A stretch of DNA of 11,957 nucleotides from a virus. Made by a program: the position numbers and the translations under genes. Shown in pieces: positions 3 through 11,957 of this stretch. How positions within the stretch are numbered: position 1 is the first letter of the stretch; the number at the start of each line of letters is the position of its first letter. A model generated the notes under the pieces. That model did not search any database. It was not told the origin of the DNA and worked only from the letters and a program-made list of their open reading frames with translations. The stretch lies in the UHGV virus genome UHGV-0339357. One strand, given 5' to 3'.

Positions 3-1203
<1,201 letters not shown>

Positions 1204-1207
<4 letters not shown>

Positions 1208-1730: not shown

Positions 1731-2080
1731 TTAGAAAGGTCCTGGATGTCTTCTGCGAACTTGTTGAAGGAGTTGTTGATTTGTTTTTCAACCAATCCTG
1801 GCTTACGAGCCACCACATCCGCCTTCTTTGCATCTTTGCGCAGTTTTTCATTTTCACGCTCAATAGCAGCAATCGCCTCACGATTTTTATTATTCATCGC
1901 ATCAATATAATTATACTGAATTCGCAAATTATTTAATGCTAAGGCGTTTTCATTGGCCGTTTTTGTAATTTCTGCAACAGACGTTTCTAATCTTTCTACC
2001 TTATTTTTTAAAATAATAGATGTTCCGCCAAATGCTATTACAAGTAATAGCAATCCAGCTGTAAAATTACTTACATGCAT
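1727..2080 (-). CDS. Predicted inner-membrane protein with periplasmic coiled coil, probable i-spanin (Rz equivalent), 117 aa
   Basis: N-terminal hydrophobic helix AGLLLLVIAFGGTSIIL followed by a charged, heptad-like, coiled-coil-prone region; directly upstream of the lipoprotein ORF with ATGA overlap; position matches T4 pseT.3. Confidence 0.6.
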   Translation of the reverse strand: MHVSNFTAGLLLLVIAFGGTSIILKNKVERLETSVAEITKTANENALALNNLRIQYNYIDAMNNKNREAIAAIERENEKLRKDAKKADVVARKPGLVEKQINNSFNKFAEDIQDLSK

Positions 2081-2574
2081 AAAGTTTTAATAACCTCTAT
2101 AATATCGTCTTGAGAAAGACCGTTAATTAAAATATGATGTTCAGCCGGAGATTTAGAAATTTTAAAGCACGCCGCAACATCTTCTGCCATATCCGATGCG
2201 CTACGATTTGGATTACTAATTCCAAGACGATGCTTTCCTGTCAAAGGATTAACGATGATATAGCATTTGCAGCTATTGATATGAACATTAGGTTGAGTCT
2301 GATTAATAAACACTTCACAATCATACTTAGCGAGTTGATTTTCTAAAAAGACTTTCATCTCCTCAACCGCATCAGGAAGCATATCACGGGCTTGCTCAAG
2401 ACGACGATTTCGATATTCTTTAATGGTCGTTTTCCGCTTGACTTGCTTAGCTAAATCTTTCTTAAGATCGGTGATATATCCAACTCGACGATTTCCTTTA
2501 AATACAGAAATCCCATCTGTAGTATCACCGTATGCTTCAACGACCATCTCAGTAGTAATAAGCTGCAAATCCAT
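2071..2574 (-). CDS. alc: Alc protein (blocks transcription elongation on cytosine-containing DNA), 167 aa
   Basis: Position between rnlA and the spanin pair as in T4; translation from MDLQLITTEM matches my recollection of T4 Alc; GAGGGG Shine-Dalgarno 7 nt upstream of ATG at 2574. The ORF-track start at 2589 is too close to the SD to be used. Confidence 0.75.
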   Translation of the reverse strand: MDLQLITTEMVVEAYGDTTDGISVFKGNRRVGYITDLKKDLAKQVKRKTTIKEYRNRRLEQARDMLPDAVEEMKVFLENQLAKYDCEVFINQTQPNVHINSCKCYIIVNPLTGKHRLGISNPNRSASDMAEDVAACFKISKSPAEHHILINGLSQDDIIEVIKTLCM

Positions 2575-2606
2575 CATAAAGCCCCTCATGTTATGTCAGT
2601 AAGATT

Positions 2607-2639: not shown

Positions 2640-4227
<1,588 letters not shown>

Positions 4228-4254
4228 AATAAAATGGGCCTTGCGGCCCACTCC
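4228..4254 (-). promoter_or_regulatory. Shine-Dalgarno + GC hairpin (GNRA loop) + U-run immediately upstream of the denA start
   Basis: Minus strand reads TAAGGAG-TGGGCC-GCAA-GGCCCA-TTTTATT-ATG. The 6-bp GC stem with GCAA tetraloop lies between AAGGAG and the denA ATG and is followed by a U-rich run; the nrdB stop TAA overlaps the SD. Confidence 0.5.
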
Positions 4255-5433
4255 TTAAAAATATTTTTTAAAACTCATCATAACTTTATCATCAACATCA
4301 TTATCAATCTGTGCTACAAGGTAAGATGACAGTTCTACTTCTTGCGGCGCGGATTGAACATTATCAGAATTAAGGTATTCACGAATCCAAGGATACGGAT
4401 GTTTAACCGGAGCATCGGTAATCGGGCATGGAAGACCACACTGTTTCATACGAGATACGGTTAAGTAATCAATAAAGCTCCACATGCTATTTGTATTTAA
4501 TCCAGGAACATCGCCATCTTTAAATAAATGAACTGCCCAATCTTTTTCTTGGCGGTTAACTTCCATGAAAATATCAACTGCTTCTTGTTCACACTCTTTG
4601 GCAATTTTAACCCATTCATCACCATCAGTACCGGATTGAAGTTGACGAATAATATATTGTGTACCTTTAAGATGAAGCTGCTCATCACGTGCAATAAATT
4701 TCATAATCTTCGCATTACCTTCCATGATTTCCATGTTCTTATGGAAGTTGAAAGTACATGCAAAGGATACATAAAAACGAATAGCTTCCAGAGCATTGAT
4801 AACGTGCAGACAGAGATAAAGCGACTTCATCAGGTCTCGTTTACATTCTTCCAAATGAGTGAGACTGTTTGAATATGCTTCTAAATCATATTCATTTTCA
4901 GCAAAATAACTAAAGTTTTCTTTGGCGTTTTCCCAAATACGTGTCTTGTCCAGAACATCATCATAATAACGACCAATAGATTCAGCACGTTTCATGATAG
5001 CTTTATCTAATACAATCTCATCAAATACCTTTGACGGATCAGTATAAAGATTTCGCATAATATGAGTGTATGAACGACTGTGAATAGTTTCACTAAAAGT
5101 CCATGTAGCAACCCATGTATCAAGGCTTGGGTCTGAAATCAATGACATAAGTACAGCAGACGGTGCACGACCCTGAATGCTATCCAGAAGTGATTGATAC
5201 TTCAGATTATTAGTAAAAATATTCTGCTGATATTGAGGAAGCTTATTAAACTGTGCAGCATCCATCATTAAGTTTACTTCTTCAGGACGCCAGAAAAATG
5301 ACAACTGCTTTTCGGTTAAATCTTCAAAAACTTTATGACGTTGAATATCATAACGCGCAATACCAAGACCTGAACCAAAAAACATAGGTTCTTTTAAAAC
5401 ATCAACTGGATTTGTATTAAAAACTGTGCTCAT
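4255..5433 (-). CDS. nrdB: Ribonucleotide reductase class Ia small (beta) subunit, 392 aa, uninterrupted
   Basis: Di-iron / tyrosyl-radical protein signatures (SRSYTHI, RDEQLH-type carboxylate-His motif); strong similarity to T4 NrdB as recalled; continuous ORF with no intron-like gap. Confidence 0.9.
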   Translation of the reverse strand: MSTVFNTNPVDVLKEPMFFGSGLGIARYDIQRHKVFEDLTEKQLSFFWRPEEVNLMMDAAQFNKLPQYQQNIFTNNLKYQSLLDSIQGRAPSAVLMSLISDPSLDTWVATWTFSETIHSRSYTHIMRNLYTDPSKVFDEIVLDKAIMKRAESIGRYYDDVLDKTRIWENAKENFSYFAENEYDLEAYSNSLTHLEECKRDLMKSLYLCLHVINALEAIRFYVSFACTFNFHKNMEIMEGNAKIMKFIARDEQLHLKGTQYIIRQLQSGTDGDEWVKIAKECEQEAVDIFMEVNRQEKDWAVHLFKDGDVPGLNTNSMWSFIDYLTVSRMKQCGLPCPITDAPVKHPYPWIREYLNSDNVQSAPQEVELSSYLVAQIDNDVDDKVMMSFKKYF

Positions 5434-5484
5434 AAATTTTCCGCTTAGTTAATAGTTGGTGACTCGTCCGTGAGTCAAATTATA

Positions 5485-7749
5485 TCATAATTTACAGGAT
5501 GAACAATCTTCAGCTTTTGGAGTTTCTATTTCATAATCATCAGTACCAGAACCGTCACGGGTATTATGATAATAGAAATTTTTTCCGCCAAAATACCAGA
5601 AATACAAAAGGTCATCAATCATTATTGACATTGGAACCTTGCCTTTAGGGAAGATTTGGGGGTCATAGTATGTATTCGCCGAAGCTGATTGACAAACCCA
5701 TTTCAGCATAATAGCTACCTGCGTAAGATAAGGTTTATTACCTTTCTTAGCTAATTTCCATGTATAATCATAAAGGTCTATGTTATGCTCAATATTGGGC
5801 ACGACTTGATTAAAGGAGCCCTCTTTTGATTCTTTAACAGAGACTGGTCCACGTGGAGGCTCGATACCGTTTGTACTGTTAGAAACTTGGGAAGATGACT
5901 CACATGGCATAAGTGCTGATAATGTGCTATTACGGATGCCAAAGAGCTTAAGGTCTTCCCGCAGCGACGACCAGTCACAAACGTATTTTGGAGCTGCGAT
6001 TTGGTCAATCTTTTTATTGTACCAGTCGATAGGTAATTCGCCTCGAGACCAACGAGTGTCTGAATAATATTCGCAAGGTCCTTTTTCTTTGGCGAGCTTA
6101 ATGGATGCTTTAATGAGTCCATACTGTAATCTCTCAAATAGTTCATGTGTTAAATCGTTAGCATCTTCATAAGAAGCAAAGTTACTTGCCAGCCAAGCTG
6201 CATAGTTGGTAACACCTACGCCAAGATTTCGACGCTTTTTAGCTTTTTCTGCTTCAGGAACCGGATATCCTTGGTAATCCAAAAGATTATCAAGAGCACG
6301 AACTTGAACTTCTGCCAATTCATTAATTTTATCTTGGTCTTGCCAGTCAAAATTATCTAATACGAATGCAGAGAGAGTACACAATCCAATTTCAGCATCA
6401 GGACTATTCACATCATTTGTTGGAATAGCAATTTCACAGCACAAGTTACTCTGACGAATAGGTGCCTTTTCACGAATAAACGGAGTATAGTTATTCGTAT
6501 TATCAATGAACTGTACATAAATCCTTGCTGTTCCTGAACGTTCAGTCATGAGCAATTCAAATAGTTCACGGGCTTTAATACGCTTTTTACGAATATTAGG
6601 GTCTTTTTCTGCTGCTTCGTATAATTCACGGAAACGGTCTTGGTCTTTAAAATAAGAATAATAAAGCTCTCCACCCATTTCATGCGGACTGAACAAAGTA
6701 ATGTAATCGTTCTTTCCGAATCGTTCCATCATCAAATCATTCAGCTGAACACCATAATCCATATGACGAATGCGGTTTTCTTCTACGCCTTTGTTATTTT
6801 TCAAAACGAGAAGATTTTCAACTTCCAAATGCCAAATAGGATAATAAGCAGTAGCAGCGCCGCCACGAATTCCACCCTGTGAACATGATTTAACAGCAGT
6901 CTGAAAATGTTTCCAAAAAGGAATAACACCAGTATGGCGTACTTCACCCATGCCAATCTTAGAACCTTCGGCACGAATCATACCAACGTTAATACCAATT
7001 CCAGCGCGTTTAGAGATATATTCAACAATCGAAGCGGAAGCCTTATTGATAGACTTCAATGAATCTCCTGCCTCAATAACAACGCATGAACTGAACTGTC
7101 GAGTCGGAGTACGGCAACCAGCCATAATAGGAGTTGGCAGTGAAATCTGTCGAGTAGATACTGCTTCATAAAAACGAATAACATGTTTTAATCTATCAAC
7201 AGGTTCATCTTGATGCAATGCCATTCCAATAGTCATAAATGCAAACTGTGGAGTTTCATAAATTTGACCAGTGGTTTTATCTTTAACTAGATATTTTTCT
7301 TTTAATTGCATCGCCCCGGAATAAGTAAATTCCATATCCCGTTCGTGCTTAATTTTTGATTCTAAAAATGTAATTTCTTCTGCTGAATATTTTGACAATA
7401 ATTCGGGGTCATATTTACCTTCATTTACACAGTAAGAAATATGGTCAATAAATGAACGTGGTTCATATTGCCCGTAAACATGCTTACGAAGAGCAAACAT
7501 TAAACAGCGTGCAGCTACGTATTGATAATCAGGCTCTTCAACTGAAATAGAATTCGCAGCAGCCTTAATGACAATAGTCTGAATGTCATCAGTGGTCATT
7601 CCATCACGGAGATATGATTTAATATTTTCATATAATTCATAAGGATCTACAGATGTTCCTTCAGCTGCCCAAGATAAAACTTTAATAATTTTTTGTGGAT
7701 CAAAGCTCTGAGAAACACCACTACTTTTGATAACATTAATTAATTGCAT
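5485..7749 (-). CDS. nrdA: Ribonucleotide reductase class Ia large (alpha) subunit, 754 aa
   Basis: Catalytic NLCCEI motif and C-terminal cysteine pair (CSSCKL) in the translation; 754 aa as in T4 NrdA; GAGGA Shine-Dalgarno 5 nt upstream of ATG at 7749. Confidence 0.9.
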   Translation of the reverse strand: MQLINVIKSSGVSQSFDPQKIIKVLSWAAEGTSVDPYELYENIKSYLRDGMTTDDIQTIVIKAAANSISVEEPDYQYVAARCLMFALRKHVYGQYEPRSFIDHISYCVNEGKYDPELLSKYSAEEITFLESKIKHERDMEFTYSGAMQLKEKYLVKDKTTGQIYETPQFAFMTIGMALHQDEPVDRLKHVIRFYEAVSTRQISLPTPIMAGCRTPTRQFSSCVVIEAGDSLKSINKASASIVEYISKRAGIGINVGMIRAEGSKIGMGEVRHTGVIPFWKHFQTAVKSCSQGGIRGGAATAYYPIWHLEVENLLVLKNNKGVEENRIRHMDYGVQLNDLMMERFGKNDYITLFSPHEMGGELYYSYFKDQDRFRELYEAAEKDPNIRKKRIKARELFELLMTERSGTARIYVQFIDNTNNYTPFIREKAPIRQSNLCCEIAIPTNDVNSPDAEIGLCTLSAFVLDNFDWQDQDKINELAEVQVRALDNLLDYQGYPVPEAEKAKKRRNLGVGVTNYAAWLASNFASYEDANDLTHELFERLQYGLIKASIKLAKEKGPCEYYSDTRWSRGELPIDWYNKKIDQIAAPKYVCDWSSLREDLKLFGIRNSTLSALMPCESSSQVSNSTNGIEPPRGPVSVKESKEGSFNQVVPNIEHNIDLYDYTWKLAKKGNKPYLTQVAIMLKWVCQSASANTYYDPQIFPKGKVPMSIMIDDLLYFWYFGGKNFYYHNTRDGSGTDDYEIETPKAEDCSSCKL

Positions 7750-8066
7750 AAGTCCTCAACTTGAAAATCGTCTTTAAACAATCGGTTAACTATATGAGCT
7801 ATTATATCACCATGACACGGCTTTGGTTTACATGTGCATCCTAGCCTCATTCCACGTAAAGGCTCTAAATGTGCTTTAGTTATTTCTCCGGATTTAATTC
7901 GACGTATAAAATCTTTTTTGAATAATTCAATGGCAGCCTCCCGGCTGCCAGCATCTTTACCGACGTAATTTCCCCAAAATGTACCACGGTGAATATTAAC
8001 ATCAAAGTCGGATTTATATTTATTCACTACCTGGCATAGACGGCCCGCGCGGTGATAATTCGTCAT
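7740..8066 (-). CDS. Hypothetical protein, 108 aa, with Cys/His-rich C-terminal motif (position of T4 nrdA.1)
   Basis: Minus-strand ORF with ATG start; contains [12 protein letters not shown]; its stop overlaps the nrdA start region; its first 47 nt overlap the upstream ORF. Confidence 0.55.
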
Positions 8067-8283
8067 ATTGTTTTTCCGTTAAAACAGTAATATCATAATA
8101 ACAGTCAGAAGAAATTTTAATGGTGGAAACTTTATTATCAAAATACTCACGGGTCATTTTATGAGTATAATATTTTTTACCATAAATGATAATAGGCTGA
8201 TTTGGTCCTGGAACTTCTAACTCGCTTGGGTTAGGAAGTGTAAAAAGAACAACGTCAGAAGTATCTTTAAATCGTAAAATCAT
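8020..8283 (-). CDS. Hypothetical protein, 87 aa (position of T4 nrdA.2)
   Basis: ORF-track start is TTG at 8295; an internal ATG at 8283 (MILRFKD...) has a GAGGA Shine-Dalgarno at the right spacing, 20 nt downstream of the td stop. Confidence 0.55.
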
Positions 8284-8303
8284 AAATCCTCGCAATAATA
8301 AAA

Positions 8304-9163
8304 TTATACCGCCATCTTTCCTTTAATTAGCGGGTGAGATACATAGTCGTTAAGAACAAAATTATGCGGCTTTGCGAATTGACTCAACCAAAATACCTGT
8401 GATTCTGTGTCCCATTCATCAAATTCATCTGGGAATTTTAATTGTAATTCGCATAAATCCATAGGTTCACGACGCAAAATTTCTTTACATTGTTCTACGT
8501 GATTCATATAGATATGAGTATTACCGCCAGAAAATATCAAATCTCCCGGAATATGATTACATATCTTAGCTACAATATGAACTAACGCAGCATATGATGC
8601 AATATTAAATGGAAGACCGAGGAAAACATCTACTGATCGTTGATACCACTGAAGGTCAAGGTATCCATTACGAACATTAAATTGATAGAACATATGACAA
8701 GGTGGTAATGCCATCTGCTTGAGTTCAGCTGGATTCCATGCTGAAACAATTTGACGCCTATCATTTGGCAGTTTTTTAATACGATCAATAACTTCTATAA
8801 TTTGGTCTACACCACCAAAATCACGCCACTGTTTTCCATAAATTGGACCAAGTTCACCGCTATGGTATCCTAAATCTTTTGCTTGATTTTCGTAATTTTC
8901 ATCCCAAACTGTTTTGCCTTGGATTAACGAATCATGTTGAATTAATCGCAAATCATTGACATTTGTGCTTCCCGATAAAAACCATATTAGCTCAGCAATG
9001 CAAGCTTTCCAGGCGAGCTTCTTAGTTGTTACTGCAGGAAAACCTTTAGTTAAATCCCAGCGTAATTTAGTACCGAACAAAGCAATTGTTCCTGTGCCTG
9101 TTCGGTCATCGGTTTTGTAGCCATTTTCCAGGATATCTTTAATTAAAAATTGGTATTGTTTCA

Positions 9164-9164
<1 letters not shown>
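8304..9164 (-). CDS. td: Thymidylate synthase, 286 aa, uninterrupted (no intron)
   Basis: Catalytic-cysteine motif [11 protein letters not shown] plus other ThyA-conserved blocks; 286 aa from MKQYQ; N-terminal two-thirds match my recollection of T4 TS while the C-terminal quarter differs; start ATG overlaps the upstream ORF stop (TAATG). Confidence 0.9.
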
Positions 9165-10189
<1,025 letters not shown>

Positions 10190-10193
<4 letters not shown>

Positions 10194-10549
10194 ATTACCT
10201 CCCACTGAAAGGGGCCAGAAGCAAATCCGCTATCTTTAATCATTTTAACTAAAGTTACCATTCCTCTGTTAACTGCTTGTGCGATTTCATCAAAAACTTC
10301 ATCACTATCATCGTAAAGGTCATTAAAAAGTTCTAATACATTCTTCTGAACTTTTAATTTACAGCCAACAAATTCGCCTACAGTAAATTCGTTTCCGCCA
10401 AATCCAGCGTAAAATGTAATTACACCTGTTAACTGTCTTTCACTAGAACATAGGTCGTGTGATAAATTAATATAAGCCGTCCCAGGTGCAGTTTTAAGTT
10501 GGCAACGAATACTTACTCGAGCAATTCCAGCTACACGAATGTCAGACAT
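10190..10549 (-). CDS. Hypothetical protein, 119 aa
   Basis: ATG start at 10549 preceded by a GAGGAAAA Shine-Dalgarno; the upstream ORF stop lies inside this SD region; uninterrupted ORF. Confidence 0.55.
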
Positions 10550-11844: not shown

Positions 11845-11957
11845 AAAAGCTGATAAAGTTGCTGATGATTTGGATGCATTCAATGTTGATGACTTCAATA
11901 CAAAAACTGAAGATGATTTTATGAGCTCAAGCTCTGGCAGTTCATCTAGTGCTGATG
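11802..11957. repeat. Perfect 43-bp inverted repeat (arms 11802-11844 and 11915-11957) separated by a 70-bp spacer
   Basis: 11915-11957 is the exact reverse complement of 11802-11844, verified base by base; the right arm ends at the window edge, so the repeat may be longer. Confidence 0.9.
11846..11957 (+). other. 32: Gene 32 internal coding segment in plus orientation ([37 protein letters not shown]), running off the window edge
   Basis: Plus-strand in-frame translation gives gp32-like C-terminal-domain sequence ending in the same [13 protein letters not shown] codons that occur on the minus strand at 11802-11844. Confidence 0.6.

Follow-up and report, generated by a model that had tools for sequence, protein, structure and literature searches.

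The stretch of viral DNA analyzed here, 11,957 nt of UHGV virus genome UHGV-0339357 (the window), is very probably a Tequatrovirus segment near Shigella phage Sf21 with ordinary, T2-like empty intron sites in td and nrdB and a nrdA-nrdB spacer free of mobE; judged from its sequence, the region would be expected to behave as a recipient of mobile introns. Both td and nrdB encode complete enzymes without any splicing, and their annotation in the window needs to provide for none.

All substantial ORFs of the window lie on the minus strand (ORF listing), and the 3' end of gene 32 is located at the window's end. Pfam and PHROG searches, together with nucleotide identity, revealed the one-strand order pseT-alc-rnlA-denA-nrdB-nrdA-nrdA.1-nrdA.2-td-frd-frd.1-3, which is the nucleotide-metabolism block of Tequatrovirus. 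The genes and spacers to which we refer below are the following:

3-908, minus strand: pseT (Pfam/PHROG search)
905-1207, minus strand: 100-aa ORF between pseT and pseT.1 (phrog_2364), not in T4, present in Sf21 and Yersinia phage PYPS2T
1431-2080, minus strand: two spanin genes (Pfam/PHROG search)
2071-2589, minus strand: alc (Pfam/PHROG search)
2640-3800, minus strand: rnlA (Pfam/PHROG search)
3817-4251, minus strand: denA (endonuclease II), GIY-YIG fold, 143/145 identical to T4 DenA (phrog_1111)
4255-5433, minus strand: nrdB, ribonucleotide reductase small subunit, 392 aa, uninterrupted (Pfam Ribonuc_red_sm, PF00268, 3.1e-37)
5434-5484, minus strand: nrdA-nrdB spacer of 51 nt, near-identical to the T2 spacer; T4 carries mobE and nrdB.1 there
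5485-7749, minus strand: nrdA, ribonucleotide reductase large subunit, 754 aa (Pfam ATP-cone, Ribonuc_red_lgN, Ribonuc_red_lgC)
7740-8295, minus strand: nrdA.1 and nrdA.2 (Pfam/PHROG search)
8304-9164, minus strand: td, thymidylate synthase, 286 aa, uninterrupted, intron-less allele (Pfam, 1TIS, T4 collinearity)
9164-9370, minus strand: optional 68-aa ORF between frd and td, without T4 counterpart (phrog_9550, no Pfam match)
9367-9948, minus strand: frd (Pfam/PHROG search)
9948-10549, minus strand: two ORFs between frd and frd.1, of 85 aa (phrog_3183) and 119 aa (Pfam DUF7247), not in T4
up to 11576, minus strand: frd.1-frd.3 (Pfam/PHROG search)

When the window was compared by megablast with 50,697 phage records, 1007 records matched and 485 covered at least 80% of it. 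The best match was Sf21 (NC_042077), which showed 97.2% identity over 98% of the window and an identical gene order. This nearest sequenced genome shares the empty sites, and its td is 99.8% identical to that of the window. Because the Sf21 nrdB reaches only 93.4% identity to the window's nrdB, compared to 99.4% for that of Shigella phage ESh25, the window is a mosaic and not Sf21 itself. The nearest relative switches within 4 kb, td (8304-9164) being Sf21-like and the nrdB region (4255-5484) ESh25-like, an instance of local mosaicism. At the far end, the last 112 nt of the window (11846-11957), encoding the C-terminal part of gp32, were not aligned to Sf21 by megablast; the final 25 aa are those of T4, and the sequence upstream of them differs or shifts frame.

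The td ORF is listed as 8304..9176 (minus), and the ATG at 9164 yields a protein of 286 aa. Its product matches Pfam Thymidylat_synt (PF00303) from end to end (2.8e-93 over residues 2-286) and the T4 thymidylate synthase structure 1TIS over residues 1-286 (9e-173). In local blastn alignments, the gene is collinear with spliced T4 td: T4 exon 1 corresponds to nt 1-549 and exon 2 to the sequence from nt 550, with the 1017-nt intron skipped. The junction between nt 549 and 550 abuts without a gap, placing the empty insertion point between window positions 8616 and 8615. The locus thus combines what defines an empty-site td allele, namely a full-length ORF, directly abutting exons and a region free of intron or I-TevI sequence. 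For nrdB, nt 1-674 and 677-1179 align either side of the 598-nt intron of T4, and the empty insertion point follows nt 676, between window positions 4758 and 4757; NrdB has the same length in the window, T2, Sf21 and PYPS2T. The alignment to T4 therefore shows exact empty junctions in both genes, bearing out the claim of the sequence-only reading that td (286 codons) and nrdB (392 codons) are continuous, with no intron-sized gap.

The same junctions coincide to the nucleotide with the T4 splice sites, as they would if the window were T4 or a T4 derivative from which the introns had been precisely removed by a pipeline or an engineered deletion. We give this explanation next to no chance. Compared with spliced T4 td, the td gene reaches an identity of only 85.8% across its length, with 93% in exon 1, and nrdB identity to T4 ranges from 82 to 96%, its 3' part reaching 96% and its 5' part only 82.5%. 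Moreover, the window has four small optional ORFs that T4 lacks and is itself without mobE and nrdB.1, and contiguous genes also occur in independent records, including Sf21, T2 and hundreds more. The possibility that a pipeline had deleted the introns from T4, raised at the outset as a refutation, is thus answered by the alignments of td and nrdB: the window is a pseT-to-gene-32 segment of a Tequatrovirus and not an edited T4.

To search for remnants of the mobile elements, the T4 td intron, the nrdB intron, the mobE/nrdB.1 segment and the I-TevI, I-TevIII, MobE and NrdB.1 proteins were used as blastn and tblastn queries. Against the window, the T4 intron and endonuclease queries gave chance-level matches only (best E=0.12-0.7), and neither blastn nor tblastn found MobE or NrdB.1 similarity in it; as a positive control, the intron and endonuclease queries recovered T4 itself at full length. 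This comparison replaced a scan for group I introns at the Rfam gathering threshold, which reported no match in the window and also none in the T4 control, making it uninformative. In T4, the scanned segment was 6500-14800, which holds the td and nrdB introns, and no group I intron was reported there. Introns with large ORF insertions evidently escape the Rfam search, so its negative outcome is not evidence of absence and the test was discarded. The GIY-YIG ORF at 3817-4251 was considered as an overlooked homing endonuclease and ruled out, as its near-identity to T4 DenA identifies it as denA. This conserved core gene is the sole nuclease-family ORF in the window. A homing endonuclease gene, in the form of an optional GIY-YIG or HNH ORF, was not found in the window by Pfam and PHROG searches, the small optional ORFs carrying no nuclease domains. 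The earlier statement that no homing-endonuclease ORF lies near td and nrdB accordingly holds, the only GIY-YIG ORF being denA and the I-TevI, I-TevIII and MobE queries remaining at chance level.

The intron-less state proved to be common. With window td as query, 614 phage records matched, 398 of them contiguous at a coverage of at least 80%, and the T4 td intron matched 260 records, 197 at full length. Window nrdB matched 902 phage records and the T4 nrdB intron 191, about 118 at full length, with many of the others representing short matches in unrelated phages. The T4 mobE region detected mobE-like sequence in 143 records, only 20 of them at a coverage of at least 80%. Overall, the intron is absent from about 60% of the td-matching and about 85% of the nrdB-matching phage records, percentages that are approximate because duplicate GenBank/RefSeq entries were counted and some short ORF-less introns were scored as contiguous. 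In the de-replicated IMG/VR set, 74 of 77 T4-like td loci with a locatable active-site motif were contiguous; the only three carrying a td intron (L035, L040 and L065) have it, by inspection, at the identical insertion site. Intron-less td and nrdB are the majority, ordinary state among T4 relatives and already known as such, the patchy occurrence of introns among T-even phages having been on record since the late 1980s according to the references given in PMC2988022. The initial view of the phage as a distinct T-even relative stands on other grounds, namely the 85.8% td identity to T4, the extra ORFs and the 97.2% identity to Sf21, whereas the lack of introns, on which it had been based, is no marker of distinctness, being the majority state and also that of T2.

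I-TevI recognizes a site of 38 bp, and its cuts fall 23/25 nt upstream from the point of insertion (PMC2988022). Its native cleavage motif is CA^AC_vG (CNNNG), in which C1 and G5 are critical, and the enzyme is described as tolerant of sequence change (PMC5009752). The corresponding features of the window are:

8605-8642, minus strand: empty I-TevI homing site, positions -27 to +11, reading CAACGATCAGTAGATGTTTTCCTCGGT up to and CTTCCATTTAA after the insertion point between 8616 and 8615
8638-8642, minus strand: I-TevI cleavage motif 5'-CAACG-3', positions -27 to -23, read from the sequence

The CAACG motif is thus intact in td and keeps its native spacing to the insertion site; the 38-bp site is identical to that of T4 at 33 of 38 positions and to that of T2 at 36 of 38; the T2 site itself matches T4 at 32 of 38. 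The five differences from T4, at -22, -6, -4, +3 and +6, are all synonymous. Four of them fall in the 20-bp primary I-TevI binding region centred on the insertion site, where three are also found in T2 and the C at -4 occurs in neither T4 nor T2. Synonymous changes clustering in the primary binding region might suggest an allele selected to prevent I-TevI binding or cleavage, rendering the phage immune to invasion. We regard such resistance as extremely improbable, as the critical motif and its spacing are unchanged (for the motif requirement, see PMC5009752) and I-TevI tolerates sequence variation (PMC5009752). Furthermore, of the five changes four recur in T2, whose site has a total of six, and T2 is nonetheless an efficient intron recipient (PMC2790892), and siblings on the same backbone as the window have acquired the intron. 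Progeny of T2 x T4 crosses inherit I-TevI, I-TevIII and mobE each at roughly double the input frequency (PMC2790892, Table 2). With motif and spacing intact, a site nearer to that of T4 than is the site of the proven recipient T2, and intron-bearing siblings in existence, the td region is a plausible homing recipient, predicted to be cleavable by I-TevI. The suggestion of the sequence-only reading that the phage is a potential recipient for intron homing is therefore plausible, and its proposal to compare the I-TevI site with that of T4 yielded a T2-like site with an intact cleavage motif. Homing from a T4 donor could be lowered in efficiency by heterologies flanking the site, candidates being the 68-aa ORF upstream and a 99-nt cassette 154 nt downstream of the insertion point.

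In group I introns, the end of exon 1 pairs with an internal guide sequence to form the P1 helix. In the six intron-bearing td alleles compared (T4, PYPS2T, Escherichia phage vB_EcoM_G2540, L035, L040 and L065), exon 1 ends in TTGGGT or TTAGGT (TTGGGT in PYPS2T and G2540) and the guide sequences GCCTGA, GCCTGG or GCCTAG match these ends. Intron-less alleles vary at this position, showing CTCGGT in the window, CTTGGT in T2, and TTAGGA and others elsewhere. The CTCGGT end would lose two of six pairs with the intron guide sequence, and homing into the window td must therefore co-convert the stretch between cut site and insertion point. Such co-conversion is usual for I-TevI. As an intron-less allele is free of the exon-intron pairing constraint and no selection for resistance needs to be invoked, the synonymous differences around the insertion site at -6 and -4 are best read as drift. 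In two of the more distant T4-like phages from IMG/VR, L065 and L040, the td intron occupies the identical site (at about 6550), and their altered guides, GCCTAG and GCCTGG, can nonetheless each pair with the exon end of the same allele (TTAGGT and TTGGGT, respectively), in what looks like exon-intron co-variation.

These comparisons also bear on how the empty td site arose. The td intron is patchy among very close relatives, being present in PYPS2T and G2540 and absent from Sf21, and degenerate ORF-less introns exist, indicating that gain and loss are both ongoing in the group. An intron-bearing ancestor could hence have lost its introns precisely, for instance via recombination with an intron-less allele or a spliced-RNA copy. 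For the window we consider this history unlikely: the CTCGGT exon end would break the pairing with the guide at two of six positions, and no T4-like co-conversion tract surrounds the td site, whereas the intron-bearing sibling PYPS2T has one. In addition, sites without an intron prevail in distant T4-like genera as well (the 74 of 77 loci above).

Homing of the nrdB intron by way of T4 I-TevIII, implied by the sequence-only reading, did not hold up: the T4 form is defective and MobE mobilises the intron in trans (PMC2790892). More precisely, T4 I-TevIII is an inactive deletion derivative, with the active form found in RB3 (PMC1865063, PMC2988022), and MobE acts by nicking T2 nrdB at nt 122-126 (PMC2790892). 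Since MobE mobilises the T4 nrdB intron, the relevant target is the MobE site together with the empty nrdA-nrdB spacer, and not the I-TevIII site. The two nrdB features are:

5308-5312, minus strand: counterpart of the T2 MobE nicking site, nrdB nt 122-126, from comparison with T2
4738-4777, minus strand: empty nrdB insertion site with 20 nt on either side, the region of the RB3-type I-TevIII site, reading TTTTTATGTATCCTTTGCAT before and GTACTTTCAACTTCCATAAG after the insertion point

No difference from T2 is present across nrdB nt 101-150, and in the wider stretch of nt 62-186 the window departs from T2 at 2 of 125 positions and from T4 at 28 of 125. A T2-identical nrdB segment with so few surrounding differences, next to a 51-nt spacer without mobE, means that a predicted MobE target is present at 5308-5312. 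Around the nrdB insertion point, where RB3-type I-TevIII cuts at -14/-16 (PMC1865063), 36 of 40 nt are identical to T4, the differences lying at -8, -2, +5 and +8; T2 has a single difference.

Besides the intron sites, the region contains two hypervariable cassettes. It had been noted from sequence inspection that the C-terminal quarter of td diverges from T4; the divergence is real and its extent smaller, being confined to a single segment:

8363-8461, minus strand: hypervariable 33-codon td cassette, aa 235-267, nt 704-802, an alternative allele to that of T4 and T2

Within these 99 nt, only 32 are identical to T4, compared to 99 of 99 in both Sf21 and G2540, and the encoded protein shows no similarity to speak of to that of T4, yet has equal length; the flanks are 88-93% identical to T4. 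The aa 235-267 stretch is hypervariable in all T4-like phages sampled. The window cassette resembles the widespread 'WPxxFxxWxTxxQLxW' form, whereas that of T4, 'GLPYKFRYLSTKEQL', is the rarer one. A link between cassette type and intron status was considered and rejected because all four combinations exist: intron with T4-type cassette (PYPS2T, T4), no intron with window-type cassette (Sf21, the window), no intron with T4-type cassette (T2) and intron with window-type cassette (36 records). A second hypervariable cassette is located in NrdB at aa ~160-200 (window 4834-4953, minus strand), lying some 80-190 nt upstream from the empty nrdB site. It differs from T4 by 12 nt in length and occurs in at least three types, those of T4, of T2/PYPS2T and of Sf21/window.

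Optional genes add further variation. The 68-aa ORF that separates frd from td shares bases of its stop codon with the start of td (TAATG). It is also found in Sf21 and PYPS2T, and introduces a heterology some 520 nt upstream from where I-TevI would cut. In T4, frd and td overlap with no ORF between them, and T2 and G2540 carry a different ORF of 115 aa. At least three states of the frd-td junction thus exist (a 68-aa ORF, a 115-aa ORF or none), making it a hot spot of optional small genes. At the frd/frd.1 junction, T2 apparently carries only the 85-aa ORF (phrog_3183) of the two. One might regard the cassettes at 8363-8461 and 4834-4953 and the optional frd/td ORF as homology barriers, kept because they limit co-conversion and invasion from T4-type donors and not as neutral surface-loop variation; we consider this very unlikely.

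Considering the window as a segment with T2-like empty sites, the td/nrdB region would act as the recipient if the phage shared a host cell with T4 or another relative that carries the introns. I-TevI is then predicted to occupy the 38-bp site at 8605-8642 and to cleave within CAACG (8638-8642), at 23/25 nt upstream from the point of insertion, and donor-templated repair would copy the intron together with flanking donor exon into td. The copied tract should take in the last six bases of exon 1, CTCGGT here and TTGGGT in donors, which must pair with the guide sequence. T4 MobE would nick nrdB near 5308-5312 and bring in mobE, often along with the nrdB intron. The phage shows a T2-like, endonuclease-poor configuration in this region, and the prediction is that T4 sequence would overwrite it in mixed infection, which is classical marker exclusion.

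Among known phages, T2 (AP018813), which lacks introns and mobE here and is the classical recipient when marker exclusion is studied in crosses with T4, resembles the window in its contiguous td (861 nt) and nrdB (1179 nt) and in its 51-nt nrdA-nrdB spacer without mobE. In contrast to the window, it has the T4-type td cassette, another nrdB cassette (aa ~160-200) and the 115-aa instead of the 68-aa frd/td ORF. T4 (NC_000866) shares the genes, their order and the exon junctions, with collinear thymidylate synthase and NrdB proteins, and differs in its 1017-nt and 598-nt introns, in the presence of mobE and nrdB.1 and in lacking the four optional small ORFs. PYPS2T has the backbone of the window (about 96% identity) including the 68-aa ORF, but carries a td intron with I-TevI. 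Compared site by site, its td is window-like through most of exon 1 and mostly T4-like from 8703 to about 8358 across the intron, as would be expected if an intron had been acquired and the exons on either side co-converted in patches. The PYPS2T record lists nrdA (5702-8093) as a pair of overlapping CDS, 5702-7045 and 7035-8093, and has no entry for nrdA.1, which points to a frameshift or an error in sequencing. In G2540, a td intron with I-TevI stands beside an exon 2 that shares all 99 of 99 cassette nucleotides with the window, and a chimeric query joining the 3' end of the T4 intron to exon 2 of the window was covered contiguously in 36 records. According to PYPS2T, G2540 and these 36 records, alleles essentially identical to the td of the window are invaded in nature.
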